Origin: Shigella phage Ag3
Direction: 5' to 3' (one strand)
Sequence record: FJ373894
Length of the DNA stretch: 64,000 nucleotides
Under the pieces are notes generated by a model, which was not told the origin of the DNA, made no database searches, and worked only from the letters and a program-made list of their open reading frames with translations. Each line of letters begins with the position of its first letter. Position 1 is the stretch's first letter. This document shows, piece by piece, positions 19,013 to 61,738 of this stretch. The position numbers were made by a program, and so were the translations under genes.

Positions 19013-19062
19013 AATTTAGTCCTAAATAGCCATAACACTCTATCTATTTAAGGGCTGAGACC

Positions 19063-20031
19063 ATGTCCGACTTCAAAAAGACAATCGATAAGATCAAAGT
19101 TCTGAACACGAAGGGATTGTCCCAGGCTCAGAAGCAATTGACTTATCCCCTGGACGTCACTGGGGGTAAGACCCTGGGACACTATGTCCTATTCAACATC
19201 AACCGCATCTCCGGTTCATCTTACGGTGACACGGCTACCCAGACTGTCGAGAACCCAATACAGAATCCTCTGGGGAATACTCCTGTGGTCTATGGGTCCA
19301 AGTCTGGTTCCATCACCAAATATGCATGGGCGCGTCACGTTCGCTCGAACGAATCTATTGTTCTGTGTATGCCAGAGTCCATTACAACCAACTATGGCGT
19401 TGGCTGGAATGGCAGTGAGCTGGGGCTGGCTGGAATGGGGGCACAGTTCCTTTCCCGCGCCGCCCAAGACATGACTCAGTTTAAACTGGGTGATGCGCTC
19501 AACGTCGGGAAGGAGATGGGGCGATTCGCTGCCACCAAGGCCATTCAGTCGGCCTCTGAGTCTATTCCGTTCCTACCGACCATCAACGCCCATGACACCC
19601 TTGAGTTGTTCACAGGCACCATGACCAACCCGTATGTGGAGATGATCTTCCAGGGCGTCCGCAACCGTGAGATTCCATTTACATTCAAATTCACGCCGCG
19701 ATCTCAGAAGGAAGCCAAGATGGTCCGTGAGATCATCCGTCTGTTCAAGATGCACATGTACCCTGAGTACAAGTACAACAAGAACTCCAGTGCCTTCTAT
19801 CTGCATCCATCGACCTTTGATATCACGTTCATGGTCAATGGTGAGCGTAACCAATGGCTCCACCGCATCTCCACTTGTGTACTTTCCAACATGTTCGTCA
19901 ACGAGACGCCGGACAGTTCATACGCGGTTCACAAAGATGATGGTATCGTGTCCACGCAGGTTGACATGACCTTCATCGAACTGGAGCCTCTGCATAAAGG
20001 GCGCTTTGAAACCGAAGGCGATAGCTTCTAA
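19063..20031 (+). CDS. putative baseplate/tail structural protein
   Basis: 322 aa; heads an operon ending in a tape-measure-like gene; call by context only. Confidence 0.3.
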   Translation: MSDFKKTIDKIKVLNTKGLSQAQKQLTYPLDVTGGKTLGHYVLFNINRISGSSYGDTATQTVENPIQNPLGNTPVVYGSKSGSITKYAWARHVRSNESIVLCMPESITTNYGVGWNGSELGLAGMGAQFLSRAAQDMTQFKLGDALNVGKEMGRFAATKAIQSASESIPFLPTINAHDTLELFTGTMTNPYVEMIFQGVRNREIPFTFKFTPRSQKEAKMVREIIRLFKMHMYPEYKYNKNSSAFYLHPSTFDITFMVNGERNQWLHRISTCVLSNMFVNETPDSSYAVHKDDGIVSTQVDMTFIELEPLHKGRFETEGDSF

Positions 20032-40016: not shown

Positions 40017-40766
40017 TTATTTGGACAGGTAGAAGTTTGGAACTTCAGGGAAATGCTCTGGTAGATATTCCCCCAGAATATCCTGCTTCACCTTCCCTTC
40101 GATATCTTCGCGGATCCGACGAATTACGTCTTCCTGTTGTTCTATCGCCATCACTTCTTCCATAGCGGAGTACAAGTTGTCTAGAATGACACCTACGTAG
40201 TTGTGGATGGCACGACAGGAGTTCTGGTCATACTCCATATCTGGATGAATCGCCAGGTCGACCTGATCACGCCCTACCAGCAGATGCCCAGACACCAGAT
40301 TTATCGGGTATTGGAATACTTCACCAGATTTGACAGCAACCCCGTCGGCTTGCTTCAGCAGGAATTCGGTTTCAGAGAAGCGTTCAAGTAGTTCCGATGG
40401 GAATACCATATCGAGATTCTGACGCTTGCGACTAAAGAAGTACAGACAATGCGCCAGTTTCAGGCATGCATCGGTAGCCATCTTCATGTGTGCTTTAGCG
40501 TGTTCATAACCAGCGATCACATCACGGACATAATCGTACAGGTCGGCATGACCAAAACGGATGTCCTCTTCGAAGCGGATTGCCGCCTCGCTGTCTGATT
40601 TCAAACCCAGCACGTCAAAGATGTTGTGTTCACGGACGGATCTGCCTTTGCGATCAAAGCCCAGAACACAACCGACTTCGAATCCACTCTTTTCAAAATT
40701 TGGGAGTTTCATATCAAGGCGAGCTGGGGTGAATTCCAACCCGAACATACGATAAAATTGTGACAT
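40017..40766 (-). CDS. hypothetical protein
   Basis: 249-aa ORF; no recognisable motif. Confidence 0.45.
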   Translation of the reverse strand: MSQFYRMFGLEFTPARLDMKLPNFEKSGFEVGCVLGFDRKGRSVREHNIFDVLGLKSDSEAAIRFEEDIRFGHADLYDYVRDVIAGYEHAKAHMKMATDACLKLAHCLYFFSRKRQNLDMVFPSELLERFSETEFLLKQADGVAVKSGEVFQYPINLVSGHLLVGRDQVDLAIHPDMEYDQNSCRAIHNYVGVILDNLYSAMEEVMAIEQQEDVIRRIREDIEGKVKQDILGEYLPEHFPEVPNFYLSK

Positions 40767-40828
40767 GTTATAGCCTCATTGTTTAGGTTTACCCGTTCAC
40801 GAATTATCCCTCGGAACGGGTTATAGAA

Positions 40829-41533
40829 CTATTTCTTCTTATGCATCCGACGCGCATCTTTCCAAACAGACATCTGACTCTGTTTCTGGAAGCGAGCGGT
40901 GCGCATGAAGAGGACGATCTCCCAGTACTGTGGCTCGATCTCATAGAGCTGAGTTCGGAAGCGGTCGGCGCGGTACAATTTCACACAGTGATTGTACAGC
41001 GGGTGGTTGGCGAACCGCTTCAGAGCATCCCAAGTGAGCTTCAGTCGCGTCTTTGAGCGGTACGCCCGTTCGTTGCGCAACTTGATGAGATCTTCGAACA
41101 CTAACAGCCTGAGCTTCGGTGGCAGGTAATGCATGTTCAGTCCCCAGAGGTATGTCACGCCCTTCTCTCCAAAGGTGATCCCATCACCCTGAGCGAAGTT
41201 GAAGAAGAACACCAGAGGATACATATCCCAGTACGGCAGTTCGTCCTTCGTCAGAGCGTCGTATTTGAAATAGAACATGCGCCCGACCATATACCGCACA
41301 CCCTGTACGGGGCGCTTGTGATCAGCGAACGCCTGTTTCATATGGTTGGGAGTCAGGTTGGCGTCCTTAGACACACGCTCCATGAACCACACATGCGAAC
41401 GGCGGATGTTGCGCTTCGCCTCTGGACCGAAGTGTTGGCGGTACTTTCGGATGTATCGCTTGACGAGTTCAGGGGCGTCCATCTCGGCCGGAAACAGCAA
41501 CGGATCTTCTTCGCCAGCTGCATTCTTTGCCAT
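40829..41533 (-). CDS. hypothetical protein
   Basis: 234 aa; basic C-terminus; no recognisable motif. Confidence 0.45.
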   Translation of the reverse strand: MAKNAAGEEDPLLFPAEMDAPELVKRYIRKYRQHFGPEAKRNIRRSHVWFMERVSKDANLTPNHMKQAFADHKRPVQGVRYMVGRMFYFKYDALTKDELPYWDMYPLVFFFNFAQGDGITFGEKGVTYLWGLNMHYLPPKLRLLVFEDLIKLRNERAYRSKTRLKLTWDALKRFANHPLYNHCVKLYRADRFRTQLYEIEPQYWEIVLFMRTARFQKQSQMSVWKDARRMHKKK

Positions 41534-41544
41534 TTGTCAACTCC

Positions 41545-41552
41545 TATAAATA
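41545..41552 (+). promoter_or_regulatory. T4-type late promoter-like element TATAAATA
   Basis: Exact TATAAATA on plus strand 35 nt upstream of the GTG start of 41587..42531, in a 53-bp divergent intergenic region; GGAG RBS 8 nt before start. Confidence 0.45.
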
Positions 41553-41586
41553 ACAACAGTTATCTTATTTAAGTGGAGTCCTCACC

Positions 41587-42531
41587 GTGGAAGACTATCG
41601 CAATTTTATCACACAGATGTTACAGCGGGGCTTGTCGCGCAAGAACCGCTTCAGAGTGACCATCCCTCTGCCACCAGGGATCTTTGACTCCAATGCCACT
41701 CTGGCTAATGACGGAAAGGCGTATAGCACCAATTCATCTTTCGGCGACTTGTTTAAGCAGTCAGCCCGTATTGTAAACGCTTTCTTTGGAGGGACAAACC
41801 AGACGTCCCGTTCGCTTCAGATGATGTGTATGGTTGCCTCATTGCCGGGGGTTGGTATCGACACCACCCCAATGACGAACAACGGCAACCACATCAAGAT
41901 GCCGAACAACAAGTCCAACGTCGACCTCGACCTGTCATTCTTGTTGGCTAATGACTATTACGAGAAGTCTGTGATGGACAAGTGGAAGAGTCTGATCTTT
42001 GATCCATACACGACCAAGATGGGCTATTACGAAGACTTCGTCACCGACATCTGCATTGAACAGCTTGACACCGAAGATCAAGTGGTCCACCGCGTCTACA
42101 TCGTCGAGGCTCATCCGATCAACTTCAGTTCCATCGAGCTGGACAAAGGTGCCACCGATCAGTTCAACCAATACAACATCTCTTTCTCTTACAACAAAGT
42201 GCTCTCGGAGACAGAATATGAAACACGCAGCCTCGCCAGCGACTTTCTTCCTCTCGGTATTACTGACGCTCTTGCCAGTGGTGACTGGGAAACTGCGGCC
42301 TCAAAAGCCGGACAGCTTTATCGGAAAGTCAAAGAAGGAAACTTCACAGGAGAGGCTCTCCTGGCTTACAAACAGCTTGACCAACTTGTAAACAACCTGG
42401 CTGGGATCAGCCTACAGGACTTCGAGCGCATCTCAGTGGGTATCTCTCGTGACATCATGGGCAACGATAACCTGACGGCGGCGGAGAAGACAAACCTGTT
42501 GGGGATATTGCAAGACGTGATGGGCAAATAA
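41587..42531 (+). CDS. putative late protein (possible virion component)
   Basis: 314 aa, GTG start; sole plus-strand gene in a long minus-strand early block; N-terminal RKNRFRVTIPLPPG faintly resembles the tail-tube family motif (RxNxFxVxI). Confidence 0.5.
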   Translation: MEDYRNFITQMLQRGLSRKNRFRVTIPLPPGIFDSNATLANDGKAYSTNSSFGDLFKQSARIVNAFFGGTNQTSRSLQMMCMVASLPGVGIDTTPMTNNGNHIKMPNNKSNVDLDLSFLLANDYYEKSVMDKWKSLIFDPYTTKMGYYEDFVTDICIEQLDTEDQVVHRVYIVEAHPINFSSIELDKGATDQFNQYNISFSYNKVLSETEYETRSLASDFLPLGITDALASGDWETAASKAGQLYRKVKEGNFTGEALLAYKQLDQLVNNLAGISLQDFERISVGISRDIMGNDNLTAAEKTNLLGILQDVMGK

Positions 42532-42532
42532 A

Positions 42533-42552
42533 AAGCCCTCCGAAGAGGGCTT
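42533..42552. terminator. bidirectional intrinsic terminator between convergent genes
   Basis: AAGCCCTC-CGAA-GAGGGCTT perfect 8-bp stem; A-run upstream (U-tract for the minus-strand gp32 transcript), T-containing tract downstream. Confidence 0.55.
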
Positions 42553-42557
42553 GTTCA

Positions 42558-43589
42558 TTAGTTAGACTTGAGGTACTGCTCGAAGTCGTCGATGGAAGCC
42601 GTGTTCTTGGCGTCCGGTGTAGACTGAGACTGAATTTGAGTCTGAGTCTGTGACGGCGCGGCCTGCTGTTGTTTCAGGCTGTCTTGAGCAGTTGGCTGCT
42701 GGTGAGCAGTCTGGGTGTTAGGGGCATGTGCCATCGTGGCCGCACCACCTTCAACCAGAGGCTGGTCATCAGGGATTGCCAGAACTTTACGCAGGCGCTT
42801 TTCCAGAGAGTCGTAGTCTTTGAAGTTAGCCGGATTGAAGAATTCAAACAGGCTGTGTTCACGAGACCAGACGTCTTCCATATACGCTTCGTCATCACTC
42901 AGCGGGGCAGGATTCTCCCACACCACCTTACTGAAGTTGGCCACCAGACCTTCCCAGTTCCCAAACTTCTTCTGCTCACCAAAGAGCTTCAGGTTCAGGT
43001 TGGCACCTTCCCACAGATCGAACGGATCGAATTTAGGGTCGGTTGGGAATTTCGGGTTCTGCGCCTGATCCAGGATTTTCTTGATGGCGTTACCAAACTC
43101 CAGCAGGAAGACCTTGCCGTTGTTTTCTGGTACGTTGACATCGTTGATCACCAGGATGTTGGCGTAGTATTTGGTGTCAGGCAGACGTTTCTTCAGGATG
43201 TCCTTCAGCTTTTCGTCGTTCGTTTCTTTCTGTTGCGCCCACAGCGGACGGTCATGGTCGCGCACCGGATCGTCGTTGCCGAACGTCTGAGGTGAGTTCT
43301 CAATGTACCAACCACCAGGTCCCTGGAACTGATGCTTCATGATCATGGCGCAAGGGGTCAGGATCTGATCTTTATCGATCGTTCCTTCTTCCTGTGCCTT
43401 GAGGTCTACCAGCGGGACTGGCAGGAAGCGGATGGTGTTCTCGGAGATGCCATCTTTGTTCCAAGTCCATTTCCAGATGCGAGGATCCTTCTGGAAGCCG
43501 GACTTCTGGCCTTGCTGTGCAAGACGCGCCTGCATTGCGTCAGTTTGCTGGCCACGGGACGCTTTCAGACGATCGAATAAATTACCCAT
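42558..43589 (-). CDS. single-stranded DNA-binding protein (T4 gp32-like)
   Basis: 343 aa; TIRFLPVP, YYANILVINDVNVPENNGKVFLLEFG, LWEGANLNLKLFG match gp32 signatures (IRFLP, YWANILVVKD..PENEGKVF, WEGANF.LK); acidic C-terminus. Confidence 0.8.
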   Translation of the reverse strand: MGNLFDRLKASRGQQTDAMQARLAQQGQKSGFQKDPRIWKWTWNKDGISENTIRFLPVPLVDLKAQEEGTIDKDQILTPCAMIMKHQFQGPGGWYIENSPQTFGNDDPVRDHDRPLWAQQKETNDEKLKDILKKRLPDTKYYANILVINDVNVPENNGKVFLLEFGNAIKKILDQAQNPKFPTDPKFDPFDLWEGANLNLKLFGEQKKFGNWEGLVANFSKVVWENPAPLSDDEAYMEDVWSREHSLFEFFNPANFKDYDSLEKRLRKVLAIPDDQPLVEGGAATMAHAPNTQTAHQQPTAQDSLKQQQAAPSQTQTQIQSQSTPDAKNTASIDDFEQYLKSN

Positions 43590-43687
43590 TTCTTAATTCC
43601 TCTGTTTCCGCCCCTCAGGGCTATTCTGTTACATGTATTTTCAGTTTGCTACAAAGCGGGGTAATTATACCCCGATACTACATTGAT

Positions 43688-43927
43688 TTAACCTTTAAGC
43701 ACTTGATTTGCTGGGTCAATTTCAATAATGTCGAACACGTCCGAAAACGTCTTCTTGCCTTCCTCGTGGGTATGGTACTCAACGACATATGAGCGACCAT
43801 CAGGGGTAACGTAACGAATACGATCTGTCTGGTCGGCATGCTCGTTCAGGCTGCCCACTCGCCAGCGCATTGCGCCAGGAAGAAACTCGGCAGCTTTCAT
43901 TGCGCTGTAAATTGATTCTTTGCTCAT
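43688..43927 (-). CDS. hypothetical protein
   Basis: 79-aa ORF. Confidence 0.4.
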   Translation of the reverse strand: MSKESIYSAMKAAEFLPGAMRWRVGSLNEHADQTDRIRYVTPDGRSYVVEYHTHEEGKKTFSDVFDIIEIDPANQVLKG

Positions 43928-43934
43928 AATAAAC

Positions 43935-44180
43935 CTACACTAATTTCTTGGACTTCAGCGTGTCTTTGATCAGGCGCGCATCGGAGCACTCAGCTGTCAG
44001 TCGCGACAACAACGGTGCTGTGATCATCTTTCTGACTTTGGTTTCGTCTATGTCGTTCTCTTCACAGACAGCAGCCAGAGTCTCAAGGATACTATCCTTG
44101 GTTTGGGCGGCGCGCAGTAGGACAATTTCAGAAAATGATTCTGGTGTCATTACAAGCGCTGGTAGTTTTTCGTCAGACAT
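43935..44180 (-). CDS. hypothetical protein
   Basis: 81-aa ORF. Confidence 0.4.
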   Translation of the reverse strand: MSDEKLPALVMTPESFSEIVLLRAAQTKDSILETLAAVCEENDIDETKVRKMITAPLLSRLTAECSDARLIKDTLKSKKLV

Positions 44181-45306: not shown

Positions 45307-45357
45307 GTAAATAGCCCATAACGAAGTTTCATTGGTGTATGGGCTATTTACGCCGGG

Positions 45358-45849: not shown

Positions 45850-46357
45850 TACTTTTCTCCAGTTCATAATCGCGCTCCACAACATATTGGTAGACACGCA
45901 TCTTAATATAGTCGGCACCACCTGCTGAAGACAGCACCCTCCATCCACTACTGAGGGCATTCATCTTATATTGACCAACCCCCTCTTGAAAATAACTTTT
46001 AATCTGTTCCAGCTTTCGCCCACGATGATAATAAGAGATGAGTTCACCGATAACAATACAATCGGGATAATGGTTGTCAAGGGTGTCAATATTGCGGTGG
46101 ACGTAGACAGGCAACACTTCTTCATCGTCGATAGGGCTGTAGTGCGGGTCTACGATGACCACCTGTAGGCCATACGACAATAAATCCTTGACACCCAGAC
46201 GACAGAACTTATAATCTTCGTGCTTCATTGCCACCTGGAGGATATTCTCTTTCTTGGCATAATCGGTCAGGAAGATAAAGAAGTCTGTGTTGGGATCGGG
46301 ATATTGTATAGACAGTTCTTTGCCTATTTCACTAAAACAAAATCCGCGCATTTTCAT
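45827..46357 (-). CDS. hypothetical protein
   Basis: 176-aa ORF diverging from the plus-strand structural genes. Confidence 0.4.
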   Translation of the reverse strand: MKMRGFCFSEIGKELSIQYPDPNTDFFIFLTDYAKKENILQVAMKHEDYKFCRLGVKDLLSYGLQVVIVDPHYSPIDDEEVLPVYVHRNIDTLDNHYPDCIVIGELISYYHRGRKLEQIKSYFQEGVGQYKMNALSSGWRVLSSAGGADYIKMRVYQYVVERDYELEKSNAKRKTR

Positions 46358-46400
46358 TCCTCGTTATAATTACTCTTACAATATACCGTGGAGATACATT

Positions 46401-47207
46401 ATGAATTTGCCATCATTGCCCAGAACAGAAAAGACATATAAAAGCGACTTTTGGCCTACTGTGATCAAATATCGCGCCTTTACTGCGGGGCAACAAACTT
46501 TATTACTTCAGGTGTCAGATCCGCAAACGCCGATTGAAGAACGCGCGGCCATGATGGAGAGCCTCTTCAGCGAATGTGTAAATGCAGGTGCGCCTTTCAG
46601 CAAACTGCCAATCGGTGTTGTTGAGGAAGTGTTCATCCGTATGCGCATGATCGCCATCGGCGAATTGATGAAGATTCGCTACAAGTGCAATAATCAGGTT
46701 GAAGAAACGATCGATCTGGGAGATGGCCAAGAAAAGCGCCAGATGGTTCCCTGTGAGCAGGAACTGACTCTGCCTATCCCGCTGAACAATGTAAAATGCA
46801 TTGCTCAGGACGGCTTCCAGGAGACGTTTGACCTGCCAGGCGGATATCACCTCAAGATGCGCCAACCTTCCTTCTCGGACGCCACGGCGCTGTCTGATGC
46901 TGCAAGTGTTGAGATGATGCTGGCCACCTTTATCGACTGTCTGTACGACGATGACGGTCAGGTGTGGAAGGTTGAGAATCCTGAAGAAATCGGCATCACT
47001 CCGGAAGAGGCTACCGAGCGCCGCCGTGTGAAAGAAGCGTTTGTTGGGTGGGTGAAGGATAACATCGAATCAGATGTCATCGACAGCATTACGAAGAACT
47101 TCTTCCACAAAATACCGCGCATCCACTACAAGAGTTCAATCAAGTGTCCGAAGTGTGGTAAGGAACACAAGATCGAATTCAATAGCATTAATGAAATTTT
47201 CATCTAA
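46401..47207 (+). CDS. putative structural/baseplate-associated protein with C-terminal zinc ribbon
   Basis: 268 aa from ATG 46401 (GGAGA upstream); C-terminal CPKCGKEH; directly upstream of the gp5-like gene. Confidence 0.3.
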   Translation: MNLPSLPRTEKTYKSDFWPTVIKYRAFTAGQQTLLLQVSDPQTPIEERAAMMESLFSECVNAGAPFSKLPIGVVEEVFIRMRMIAIGELMKIRYKCNNQVEETIDLGDGQEKRQMVPCEQELTLPIPLNNVKCIAQDGFQETFDLPGGYHLKMRQPSFSDATALSDAASVEMMLATFIDCLYDDDGQVWKVENPEEIGITPEEATERRRVKEAFVGWVKDNIESDVIDSITKNFFHKIPRIHYKSSIKCPKCGKEHKIEFNSINEIFI

Positions 47208-47356: not shown

Positions 47357-47380
47357 TCCCGCTTCGGCGGGATTTTTATT
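47356..47380 (+). terminator. intrinsic terminator
   Basis: ATCCCGC-TTCG-GCGGGAT hairpin (UUCG loop) followed by TTTTTATT. Confidence 0.65.
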
Positions 47381-47426
47381 GGCTTAACTGTAAAACAGGT
47401 TAACGCGTGCTCTCTTTACCTGAAAT

Positions 47427-47435
47427 TGTTATAAT
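47427..47435 (+). promoter_or_regulatory. extended -10 promoter candidate (TGtTATAAT)
   Basis: TG-n-TATAAT on plus strand within the 360-bp non-coding stretch upstream of the gp5-like gene. Confidence 0.35.
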
Positions 47436-47717
47436 GGGCTTGTTCCTGAGTCATTTGTTGGGGATCGTCTATTTTGAATCAGATTGTCAGTAAAATACCA
47501 TTTTTCAAGGAGTGTTCTGAGGTGTACAGTTATTGCCTCGCTCTTATGCCTCCATGGCATTGGAATGGTGCTGCCTGCATAAGGCGGTGTGATGAGCGAA
47601 GCGAATAGGATCGAATAACAAATAAAATGAACGGAAGCAGAGCTTCCTATAGTATATAAGGCAAAATCCGCTGCGCATAAATACCTTCAAATCCTTGTTT
47701 GACAACCGGAACTCAAT

Positions 47718-49328
47718 ATGTTAGACAATATGAGATGGTTTTATGGCACCGTTGAAGATGTCAACGATCCAGACCAAAACGGGCGCGTCGCCGTCCGCAT
47801 CTATGGCGTCCACACTGATGACACCGTCCTCCTGCCTACGGACAAACTCCCATGGGCGAAGGTGCTGATGCCTGCTTCAAACGCCTCCTCTGCTGGTTTA
47901 GGTTGGTCTCCAACGGGTATCATTCCTGGCACTGAGGTTATGGGGTTCGCCCTTGACGAAGCATACCAGAACCTGCGTATCACTTGGACTTGGCCTGGGG
48001 CAAATCCCACTGATGGAGCTGACACGAATCCGCTGGCTCTCGGACAGGTCGTTCAATCTGTAGAACGTCAGGCGTACAACGCTGTCACTGACGTTCCTGT
48101 GAAACAAGAAGACGAACCACAACCAGATCCACAACCACCTGTTGGCGGGTATGATCCTGAAAAATGGATGACCATCGCTCGCGGCGAGCTGGGTGTCAAG
48201 GAGTACGCCGGAAAGTTCAACAACAACCCGCGCATTATAGAATATCACAAGACAACCTCCCTTGGCGCTTCTGAAGATGAAGTGTCATGGTGTGCGGCGT
48301 TCGTGGGCTGGGTTATGTTGCAGGCTGGATACACGTCTACGCGCTCCGCTCTTGCCCGATCTTACCTTACATGGGGTAGTGCACTGTCAGCACCACAATA
48401 TGGTGCTATCGTAGTCTTCCGGCGCGGTAACAACCCTACATTTGGACACGTGGCGTTTGTACAGAAGTTCGATGCAAACTATGTCTGGTGTATCGGTGGC
48501 AACCAATCCGATTCAGTGAAGGTCAGCCGCTTCAGCCGTTCGTCAGTCCTGGGCTACCGCTGGCCTGGTCCGGCGAATACAGCTTCAGCCGCCCCAGCGC
48601 AACAGAACGGGAAATGGTCTGAGCCTATCCCTGATCGTACCCCAAAAGAGCAGGCAACTCCGGCTCCTACAGGGCGCGTACAGGATATTGATAACACGGG
48701 CGAAACTATGGTTCCGGCAGCGGGTGGCTCCAAGTACCCGTACAACAACGTCATGGCATCCCGAGCAGGTCACATAATGGAGGTGGACGACACTCCTGGT
48801 GGTGAGCGTCTTCATTGGATGCACATGTCCGGCTCCTACAAACAGATGCTCCCGAACGGCGACGTCGTCAACAAGTCAGTGAAGGATCATTATGACCTGA
48901 CCATGTTTGACAAGCGCTATTATGTCGGCGGGGACCACAACCTGACGGTCAAAGGAACTGAAGTGCAGCGCAAGACTGGTGAGGTCTATCACCTTCACTC
49001 CAACAACTACTCCAACGTGGTTGCAGGTACAGCGCTGATGAAATTCAGTGACCTGGCTGAGTTGCAAGCGCAGAATATTCTGCGCATCATCTGCGAGACT
49101 CTGGAGGTCGGCGGGACGTTGAAGGTTCCTAAGATTCTGGCAACAGAGATCATCGCCGACAAACTGACGGTTGCTCAGACGATTAATGGTAACATCATAT
49201 ATGCCGAAGGTGCTGGTCGCGCTTCTTCTCTGTCAGGTGCAACCCCTGCATCCCCTACGGGACCAGGTGAGATTGATATCAAGGCAGAATTAAAAGACAA
49301 TGGTGGTAATTTCGGCACCGAAGAGTAA
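47718..49328 (+). CDS. baseplate central spike/hub protein (gp5-like) with cell-wall hydrolase domain
   Basis: N-terminal OB-fold pattern WFYGTVEDVNDPDQNGRVAVRIYGVH...LPWAKV as in gp5; central CHAP/NlpC-P60-like motifs WCAAFVGWVMLQAGY, GHVAFV, GGNQSD; CATAAATA 26 nt upstream. Confidence 0.7.
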   Translation: MLDNMRWFYGTVEDVNDPDQNGRVAVRIYGVHTDDTVLLPTDKLPWAKVLMPASNASSAGLGWSPTGIIPGTEVMGFALDEAYQNLRITWTWPGANPTDGADTNPLALGQVVQSVERQAYNAVTDVPVKQEDEPQPDPQPPVGGYDPEKWMTIARGELGVKEYAGKFNNNPRIIEYHKTTSLGASEDEVSWCAAFVGWVMLQAGYTSTRSALARSYLTWGSALSAPQYGAIVVFRRGNNPTFGHVAFVQKFDANYVWCIGGNQSDSVKVSRFSRSSVLGYRWPGPANTASAAPAQQNGKWSEPIPDRTPKEQATPAPTGRVQDIDNTGETMVPAAGGSKYPYNNVMASRAGHIMEVDDTPGGERLHWMHMSGSYKQMLPNGDVVNKSVKDHYDLTMFDKRYYVGGDHNLTVKGTEVQRKTGEVYHLHSNNYSNVVAGTALMKFSDLAELQAQNILRIICETLEVGGTLKVPKILATEIIADKLTVAQTINGNIIYAEGAGRASSLSGATPASPTGPGEIDIKAELKDNGGNFGTEE

Positions 49329-56441: not shown

Positions 56442-57254
56442 TTAACTGAAACTCTTGTATGCAGCAGCGAGCTTCGTGTCGTACTGGTTCTTGGCATACG
56501 CCGGACCATTATAGCGCCGCGCAAACTCAGCCCAGTTCTTGTCCTTCAGAGCCTGCCAGAGCTTGACGTCGGCCTTGATGAACTTCACGAATGCCATCAG
56601 ATGAGCACGTTCGCCTGTCAGGAAGTCATTGAACATCTCCTTGGCGTTGGCGTACCCACAGACCTGGCAGTTGAAGCCCATGATCTGGAAGAGGCCGTAT
56701 GAAGCGCTCTCGTACGCACAATCCTCATCGATGTTGATGGCTGCGTGAAGTCGATCCAACTCCGCGTCGCCGCCCGTGTACCCGCCTGCCACTGGACTGA
56801 CAAGGGTTGGATACATCTGACCAGCAGCATTCGCCCGAGCCTGCCCGAACTTCGCCATCATCTTCTTGTACATGATGTGACGCTCAAACAACGTCTTGAT
56901 CTTACCAGACTTGGTGAAGCCAGTGCCACGGGATTCAACCTGATTGACTGCCTTCACAGAGGCGAGGTCAACTCCCAGCTGGTTGGCTGCGTCGATAAGG
57001 TCAGCCTCAGTCAGGTGATCCTGATGAGAGTCTCCGGCGTTGCGAATAGCATAGGAGGTCTTTGGACCCACAATACCATCAATGACAAGCCCCGCACCCG
57101 CCTGAACAGTCTTGACAGCGTTCTCTGTTGCCTTACCAAAGATGCCGTCAGCGACGAGGGTGAAGCCGATTTTGTTGAGGCTCTGCTGAAGTGATTTGAC
57201 TTCAGAGCCGCGTGTGCCAAGTTTTAGAATGGCCATAAGAAAATACCTCCGCAA
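56442..57254 (-). CDS. endolysin (peptidoglycan-binding domain plus muramidase/transglycosylase-like domain)
   Basis: N-terminal PG_binding_1-like repeat (LKLGTRGSEVKSLQQSLNKIGF...DGIFGKATENAVKTVQ); C-terminal catalytic signature ESASYGLFQIMGFN; start 57254 or ATG 57236. Confidence 0.65.
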   Translation of the reverse strand: MRRYFLMAILKLGTRGSEVKSLQQSLNKIGFTLVADGIFGKATENAVKTVQAGAGLVIDGIVGPKTSYAIRNAGDSHQDHLTEADLIDAANQLGVDLASVKAVNQVESRGTGFTKSGKIKTLFERHIMYKKMMAKFGQARANAAGQMYPTLVSPVAGGYTGGDAELDRLHAAINIDEDCAYESASYGLFQIMGFNCQVCGYANAKEMFNDFLTGERAHLMAFVKFIKADVKLWQALKDKNWAEFARRYNGPAYAKNQYDTKLAAAYKSFS

Positions 57255-57305
57255 TGAATGCGAAGGTATTTAAAGTGAAAGTGAACTACTTGAGGAACTG
57301 CCGTG

Positions 57306-60458: not shown

Positions 60459-60866
60459 TTACGACAGCTGCTTCAGTTTGTAGATCGTCTGATAGCACAG
60501 CGTCTTGATTTCATCAAGCGTGTTCTGAAGGTGGGAGTCGCACTGCCTGTAGATGCCATCGACGTCTATCACCACGCTGTTGACATAGGAGATAGGGTCT
60601 GGGTTGTACAATTTGATGTTCTCAAACGACGGAACGTACTGGCCACCCGCACCGATGTATGCTTCGGTAAACGTGTCCAGCAAGTCCTCCAGTTCCCCGT
60701 AGAACTCCCCGAGTGCTTTGTGCTTGGCATAGGACGTTGTAACGAAGTGTAAGGCATGAGAGTGGGCTATAGCAAGCAGTCCACGGTTGATGAAAATACT
60801 CGCGTTAACCATGATTTGTTTCCTCAGAAAAAGAAATCCCCCTGTATTTAGGGGGATTGTAATCAC
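60459..60866 (-). CDS. hypothetical protein
   Basis: 135 aa from GTG 60866 (GTGA overlap) or 117 aa from ATG 60812. Confidence 0.4.
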   Translation of the reverse strand: MITIPLNTGGFLFLRKQIMVNASIFINRGLLAIAHSHALHFVTTSYAKHKALGEFYGELEDLLDTFTEAYIGAGGQYVPSFENIKLYNPDPISYVNSVVIDVDGIYRQCDSHLQNTLDEIKTLCYQTIYKLKQLS

Positions 60867-61111: not shown

Positions 61112-61681
61112 TTAGACAGGCTTGACGCCGAGGAACTTGGCGATATCAGCAGCCAGGTTTTTACCCTTGCTGATGTCCTGTTCCTTGCCATTGCATGTGA
61201 CGATCACATACGGGTCGTCTTCGCCGCCGAAGTTCACGGTGATCGCCTTGCCGATGCCAGGGATGCCAGAGTATTCGAACTCAGTGCGACCACTTTTGCG
61301 GGACTTGCCAACACCCAGTGCTTTGCCGATCATCTTGTCCATGTTCGCCAGTTCCTGAGCATAGGCTTCGGTCACCTGACCTTTGTCAGCAGACTTGCCA
61401 AAGAAGAATTCGAAACCGTCATGGACAGCAACGACTTCCTGACCTTGGGAGATACCGTGAGTCTGGTCTGGGGTCAGCTTCACCTTGATGGTATTGCCGT
61501 TGGTTAACTCCAGGTTGTAGACATCCGCCTGATTGTCAGGGGTAATCTGGGTCACGGTAGCACCTGAGCACCACTGAGTGCCGTCAGCTTGCTTGGTGAT
61601 GGATACGCTTTTGCCCTGGACACCAGCATGGGTCTGAGGCTGAGCAGCTTGTTCTTTAAAGTATTGAAGGAACGGTTTCAT
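61112..61681 (-). CDS. protein with capsid-targeting-sequence-like N-terminus (candidate internal head protein)
   Basis: 189 aa; N-terminus MKPFLQYFKEQAAQ; size similar to T4 IPIII. Confidence 0.4.
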   Translation of the reverse strand: MKPFLQYFKEQAAQPQTHAGVQGKSVSITKQADGTQWCSGATVTQITPDNQADVYNLELTNGNTIKVKLTPDQTHGISQGQEVVAVHDGFEFFFGKSADKGQVTEAYAQELANMDKMIGKALGVGKSRKSGRTEFEYSGIPGIGKAITVNFGGEDDPYVIVTCNGKEQDISKGKNLAADIAKFLGVKPV

Positions 61682-61738
61682 CTTGAATCTCCTCGGGGAT
61701 TTCAGTTATTTATAAGCCCCCGAAGGGGCTTTAGATGA

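Follow-up and report, generated by a model that had tools for sequence, protein, structure and literature searches.

A very probable T4-type late promoter of the lone plus-strand gp54 gene of Shigella phage AG3 and its likely mirror-image partner at gp2

The gene for the gp54-type baseplate tail-tube initiator of Shigella phage AG3 lies alone on the plus strand amid minus-strand genes, and just upstream of it is an exact copy of TATAAATA, the octamer of T4 late promoters. This element is very probably a T4-type late promoter of gp54, and the spacer that holds it, only 53 bp between gp54 and the divergent gene for the DNA end protector gp2, likely serves as a compact bidirectional late control region in which the gp55-type promoter TATAAATA is opposed by a mirror-image TTAAATA. 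The analysis dealt with a stretch of 64,000 nucleotides (sequence record FJ373894), referred to here as the window, and used for whole-genome comparison the phage Gloob (OL615011; 158,676 bp, 97% identical), assembled for the analysis. A preliminary description of this DNA had proposed that a T4-type late promoter drives the lone plus-strand gene, and the proposal is supported by the placement of the motif, its conservation, the machinery genes that accompany it and the lack of a sigma-70-type site; the transcription starts, the late timing and the gp55 dependence of the gp54 and gp2 promoters are what we infer.

The spacer between gp2 and gp54 and its flanks

Orf073, which encodes the gp54-type protein of 314 aa, occupies 41587..42531 (+) and begins with a GTG at 41587. 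It is divergent from orf072 (40829..41533, −), the gene for gp2 (phrog_429, E 1.2e-67), and it converges on orf074 (42558..43589, −), confirmed by its PF08804 match (E 9e-56) as the gene for the single-stranded DNA binding protein gp32. In the published annotation, all genes from 23941 to 46351 are on the minus strand except orf073, a block of 22.4 kb that bears out the earlier claim that this is the only plus-strand gene within about 23 kb. The surroundings had also been called an early block; they are indeed minus-strand but not uniformly early, as the divergent neighbour gp2 is a late-type gene.

The exact TATAAATA is present where it had first been noticed, at 41545..41552 (+), as a −10-like element with its TAAATA core at 41547-41552 and with 34 nt between it and the GTG. 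The Shine-Dalgarno sequence of orf073, GGAG, follows at 41575..41578, 8 nt before the start codon. On the opposite strand, TTAAATA (TATTTAA as read on the plus strand) at 41566..41572 (−) is the predicted late promoter of gp2 and sits 32 nt upstream of the gp2 ATG at 41533, a distance that mirrors the one on the gp54 side. Both elements touch translation signals: the T that opens TATAAATA pairs with an A in the gp2 Shine-Dalgarno AGGAG on the other strand, and TATTTAA sits directly 5' of the gp54 GGAG. The shared base pair may be part of the reason that the T4-like first positions do not vary at this promoter.

In the proposed mechanism, the host core RNA polymerase with a phage gp55-like sigma would read TATAAATA, assisted by a gp33-like coactivator and a gp45-like sliding clamp, which would couple transcription to replication. 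Following T4 numbering, gp54 transcription would start near 41558 and yield a leader of 29 nt with the GGAG, followed by the GTG-initiated gp54, and the transcript would end at or near a hairpin at 42533-42552. The mirror TTAAATA (41572-41566, −) probably drives gp2, with a start predicted near 41560. A promoter for gp2 is needed within the spacer because the next gene upstream on its own strand, gp32, ends in a strong terminator.

For gp54, a sigma-70 scan of the plus strand from 40500 to 44000 found no promoter, and since the gene upstream is divergent as well, the gp54 promoter must lie in this region. The same scan weighs on the reading in which TATAAATA is a host sigma-70 −10 element and orf073 is expressed early or constitutively by the unmodified host RNA polymerase. 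The octamer does contain TATAAA, which matches TATAAT at five of six positions, and the early promoters of this phage family are poorly defined. However, the only TTGACA-like hexamer is TTGTCA at 41534-41539, which lies 5 nt from the −10 element where 16-18 nt are required, TATAAATA has no TG extension, and TAAATA recurs 25-35 nt before many structural-gene starts that have no −35 boxes. A sigma-70 promoter is therefore an improbable reading of TATAAATA, and the gp55-type reading is preferred.

The proteins that such a promoter would call for are encoded by these phages. A gp33-like late-transcription coactivator is the product of orf076 at 43935..44180 (−), with matches to PF16805 (E 1.2e-18) and phrog_254 (E 3e-21), while in Gloob matches to phrog_234 (E 3.6e-52) and phrog_223 (E 1.8e-64) mark the genes for a gp55-like late sigma and a gp45-like clamp. 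All three proteins have been reported for AG3 (Anany et al. 2011, PMC3121705), where the genes for gp55 and gp45 are beyond the 64 kb of the window. A search of the literature for Ackermannviridae phages found no usable transcriptome, start-site map or time course.

At the other end of orf073, the gap between its stop codon and that of gp32 is 26 nt and holds the hairpin AAGCCCTC/GAGGGCTT at 42533..42552, common to the two convergent genes, with an 8-bp stem (z-scores −2.7 and −3.1) and a 4-nt loop that reads UUCG on the minus-strand RNA. It is a canonical intrinsic terminator for gp32, as a T-run (TTTATTTG) follows the stem in that direction and the terminator scan called the minus strand. 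The plus-strand tail, GTTCATTAG, is a weak U-tract, and the scan made no plus-strand call. Since the T-run is canonical in the minus direction only, to call this hairpin a bidirectional terminator is no more than partly right for the AG3 genome. In phages 3M and K356, the orthologous hairpins are bordered on either side by A- and T-runs.

Identity of the orf073 product

The relationship to the tail-tube family that had been suspected from a faint N-terminal motif is borne out by comparison with PHROGs, where orf073 matches phrog_3629, 'tail tube protein', over the full length (E 1.6e-177) and also matches phrog_45, 'tail tube', with an E of 6e-26. A Pfam search gave no significant family, the gp19 family PF06841 being sub-threshold (E 0.077) with matches admitted up to E 10, and therefore PHROGs, PDB sequences and pairwise comparison were used. 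The best match by sequence among solved structures is T4 gp54 (PDB 5IV5 chain W, 5iv5_W; E 0.0067, residues 99-207), and at E up to 1 only two PDB matches were obtained, both of them gp54, the second being 9ufn_C (E 0.076). Compared by BLASTP with the protein annotated as gp54 in PX29, a phage of the Straboviridae, orf073 gave an E of 7e-14, with about 22% identity across an aligned core of 147 residues; for the C-terminal 100 or so residues of orf073, no counterpart was detected.

Judged from these comparisons, the orf073 product is a gp54 orthologue, and it is a structural baseplate protein, as the earlier suggestion of a late structural product had made plausible. Its orthologue in LIMEstone1, ORF50, has been detected in virions by mass spectrometry (7 peptides, 24.5% coverage), and 'baseplate tail tube' proteins are present in mass spectrometry data from Vi01-like virions. 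The possibility that orf073 is a gp48 paralogue was ruled out, as a separate gp48-like gene, orf037 at 19063-20031, matches phrog_230 'baseplate tail tube cap' and is without similarity to orf073.

The linkage of gp2 and gp54 is kept in Vibrio phage K356, Pseudomonas phage pf16 and PX29. In PX29 the order is gp4-gp2-gp54-gp26 with all genes co-directional, and in pf16 and K356 gp2 and gp54 are also adjacent. By this gene order, the linkage goes back far beyond the Ackermannviridae, with a difference in orientation alone. About 280 related genomes carry an annotated gp54, but relatives do not agree on where it begins: the start is set 289 nt (XF4), 123 nt (IME250) or 119 nt (phiEa2809) downstream of that of gp2, and in 0507-KN2-1 the annotated gene overlaps gp2. 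Those starts are probably mis-annotated, because all the genera that were aligned keep the GTG of gp54 together with a ribosome-binding site, which is GGAG in most of them.

Conservation and placement of the TAAATA core

The AG3 region is 97% identical to that of Agtrevirus phages (Ackermannviridae), and about 280 related genomes match it. To look further afield, the gp2-gp54 spacer was aligned for seven sequences, one each from Agtrevirus, Limestonevirus, Kuttervirus, Miltonvirus and Nezavisimistyvirus and two from Taipeivirus, genera that share roughly 70% nucleotide identity. TATAAATA is intact in six of the seven, with TATAAGTA in Limestonevirus XF4, and TATTTAA is invariant in all seven, while the bases between the two blocks vary. 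Miltonvirus 3M keeps TAAATA at the orthologous promoters of gp54, gp2, gp5, gp26, gp48 and gp4. In pf16 the gp2-gp54 spacer reads CTAAATA N12 TATTTAA and in K356 it contains CTAAATA..CTAAATATATTTAG; in both phages gp54 shares only 28-34% identity with orf073. The intergenic DNA is AT-rich, and TATAAATA overlaps the gp2 ribosome-binding region on the opposite strand, so part of the conservation of the motif could reflect that constraint.

Counting the motif was of little use. The exact TATAAATA occurs twice in the window against 0.43 expected, a figure of at least two being reached in 10 of 100 shuffles; copies with one mismatch number 10 against 18.65 expected; and the TAAATA core is found 16 times where 11.5 +/- 3.3 are expected. 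A first impression that TAAATA is depleted genome-wide was gone under dinucleotide-preserving shuffles. As the exact, one-mismatch and core counts were all at chance level, they were dropped as evidence, and the non-random signal therefore lies in placement and conservation. It is these counts that would favour regarding the T4-consensus match as a functionless accident of AT-rich intergenic DNA, given that one shuffle in ten yields as many exact copies and that one-mismatch copies fall below expectation. Such an accident would not be expected to persist across genera at about 70% nucleotide identity, or where gp54 has diverged as far as it has in pf16 and K356, and the placement of TAAATA likewise speaks against it, which makes chance a highly improbable explanation.

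In the whole genome of Gloob, the five exact copies of TATAAATA (about 4.8 expected) all sit 25-35 nt upstream of a co-directional start codon, yet in four cases the function of the gene is unknown, and a single copy stands before an annotated structural gene. The motif that recurs upstream of structural genes is CTAAATA, often followed by C-rich sequence. Among the 19 copies of CTAAATA, 15 are followed within 80 nt by a start codon in the same direction, and nine of those 15 precede the genes for gp48, the prohead core, the sheath, the gp14 neck protein, three tailspikes and gp6; the TAAATA core is also found upstream of gp4, gp2, gp5 and endolysin. Overall, 24 of 42 TAAATA sites in Gloob are promoter-placed, against a background of 1.5% (binomial p 3e-33), whereas the orientation control, the reverse complement of TAAATA, gave 10 of 42. 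A point on the other side is that the major capsid, portal and tail tube genes of Gloob have only variant cores, CTAAGTA or CTAATTA.

A control that is free of annotation took every one of the 15 hexamers with four A and two T, in both the window and Gloob, and counted as placed those found 20-40 nt upstream of a Shine-Dalgarno sequence and start with an ORF of at least 60 aa. TAAATA was placed in 55-56% of cases, and the other 14 hexamers reached at most 20% in the window and 17% in Gloob, with the one exception of TATAAA (two of four placed in the window), a hexamer contained in TATAAATA. As read from placement, the functional core is TAAATA, mostly in the form CTAAATA, and the first two T4 positions are free in AG3-like phages. 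An exact match to the T4 octamer thus does not define the late-promoter class here, and from the placement of TAAATA and the presence of CTAAATA upstream of late genes, the gp54 promoter is seen as one member of a TAAATA class. Enrichment upstream of structural genes, which the preliminary description had set as a check, was not found for the exact TATAAATA but was found for TAAATA and CTAAATA. Its further remark that a near-match precedes the gp5-like gene near 47685 was correct, as CATAAATA at 47676..47683 (+), 34 nt upstream of the ATG at 47718, is the predicted late promoter of this hub/lysozyme gene, and phage 3M keeps TAAATA at the same place upstream of gp5.

An arrangement like that of gp2 and gp54 was found a second time in the window. 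Between gp4 and gp48, a CTAAATA at 19022-19028 (+) for the gp48-like orf037 stands face to face with a TTAAATA at 19051-19045 (−) for the head completion gene gp4, both conserved in 3M, and the resulting TAAATA-spacer-TATTTA at 19023-19050 has flanks unlike those at gp2 and gp54. The pattern TAAATA N8-22 TATTTA thus occurs twice in the window where 0.02 are expected, and no shuffle reached two. In both cases the −10 elements are only 13-16 bp apart, the predicted starts overlap by about 3 nt, and each −10 abuts the Shine-Dalgarno sequence of the other gene.

That abutment is what recommends a translational reading, in which the conserved blocks are mRNA signals, namely the gp2 ribosome-binding region and an A/U-rich gp54 leader, and transcription starts elsewhere, for example in the neighbouring coding regions; TATAAATA does share its first base with the gp2 AGGAG, and TATTTAA does come directly before the gp54 GGAG. 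In 3M and phiEa2809, however, the gp2 ribosome-binding region differs and TATAAATA is unchanged. Furthermore, the same pattern recurs at gp4 and gp48 with other flanks, at the excess over expectation given above, and TAAATA precedes many late genes that are not divergent. We accordingly regard the translational reading as unlikely and retain that of promoters. Whether the gp2-gp54 and gp4-gp48 spacers are examples of one conserved module of two face-to-face gp55-type late promoters is an evenly balanced question; the arrangement is retained from Ackermannviridae to pf16 and Vibrio phages, at 28-34% identity of gp54. If they are, two polymerases could not share a module at once, and each module might balance or alternate the expression of a head-completion or DNA-end gene with that of a baseplate gene.

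Several other sites were noted along the way. The only other exact TATAAATA in the window, at 61707..61714 (−), stands directly behind the terminator-like hairpin gccccttcgggggc. The ORF that follows it after 25 nt, at 61112-61681 (−), encodes 189 aa and belongs to phrog_4048, of unknown function; it may be structural, because LIMEstone1 has a cluster of unnamed virion proteins in that region. In Gloob, an exact TATAAATA at 71969-71976 (+) lies 35 nt upstream of gp103, a lone plus-strand gene of unknown function inside a minus-strand block beside RNase H and gp55, a layout like that at gp54. For the gp26-like baseplate hub gene, the published annotation (start at 46551, 218 aa) seems to have chosen the wrong start codon, for an ATG at 46401 is preceded by a GGAG at 46390-46393 and, at a distance of 28 nt, by TATAATTA at 46365-46372; the longest ORF starts with a GTG at 46287, and the Pfam T4_baseplate match begins at residue 52 of the 306-aa ORF. 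Between the orf083 terminator and the gp5 promoter, 360 nt (47357-47717) are without an ORF, which is unusually long for so dense a genome.

At some sites TAAATA is joined to a hairpin. The window has a palindrome, TAAATAgcccata...tatgggcTATTTA, with TAAATA at 45308-45350 between orf080 and orf079; at 57236-57272 (−), upstream of endolysin, TAAATA is followed directly by the hairpin published as Torf098; and at 60845-60850 (−) TAAATA is in the loop of a ccccc/ggggg terminator hairpin. The tailspike promoters of Gloob contain inverted repeats of the form AATAcccc...ggggTATT. Such fusions may be compact terminator-promoter units or leader structures.

Published annotation and known late promoters

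Much of this locus was described when the genome of PhiSboM-AG3 (Ackermannviridae, Agtrevirus) was annotated (Anany et al. 2011, Virol J 8:242, PMC3121705, Additional files 1 and 2), and the coordinates of the window agree with that annotation at every feature compared, which makes the window the first 64 kb of this genome. Orf073 at 41587-42531 (+), 314 aa, is listed there as 'gp54 baseplate tail tube initiator', along with orf072 at 40829-41533 (−) as gp2, orf074 at 42558-43589 (−) as gp32 and orf076 at 43935-44180 (−) as gp33. The same source gives two putative late promoters of interest, 'Porf072' at 41524..41552 (tctttgccatttgtcaactcctataaata) and 'Porf084' at 47655..47683 (...gcgcataaata, upstream of gp5), and the terminators Torf073 at 42535..42555 (+) and Torf074 at 42526..42550 (−) (PMC3121705). 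The gp54 gene, its putative promoter and its terminator have thus been known since 2011, and the value of the present finding as a discovery is modest, a correct but ordinary case of a gene, a promoter and a terminator already in a genome paper.

What can be added concerns the direction of the promoter and the class to which it belongs. The published label assigns Porf072 to gp2, whereas the motif reads on the plus strand, in the direction of orf073, and the label is corrected here to gp54. The minus-strand TTAAATA, the CTAAATA class and the conservation across genera, all three described here, are not part of that annotation (PMC3121705). According to the CBA120 paper, phages like ViI still lacked an identified late-promoter sequence (PMC3184105); the core predicted here for Ackermannviridae late promoters is TAAATA, mostly CTAAATA. 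In addition, the possible module of face-to-face divergent promoters could help in engineering late-expressed reporters in these biocontrol phages.

The closest comparison is with T4 itself, in which late promoters have TATAAATA at −13 to −6 and are read by gp55 together with gp33 and the gp45 clamp. The gp54 promoter of AG3 shares with them the identical 8-mer, the absence of a −35 element and a site in front of a morphogenetic gene, and the AG3 group has its own homologues of gp55, gp33 and gp45. The difference is that most late genes of the group would use CTAAATA and then a C-rich stretch. In this they resemble Aeromonas phage Aeh1, for which a putative, computationally predicted late consensus CTAAATA beginning at −12 has been proposed (Nolan et al. 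2006, PMC1524935), as a C-TAAATA consensus also dominates upstream of structural genes in the AG3-like genome. The gp54 promoter departs from the consensus of Aeh1, a phage of a different family, in having an A in place of the C.
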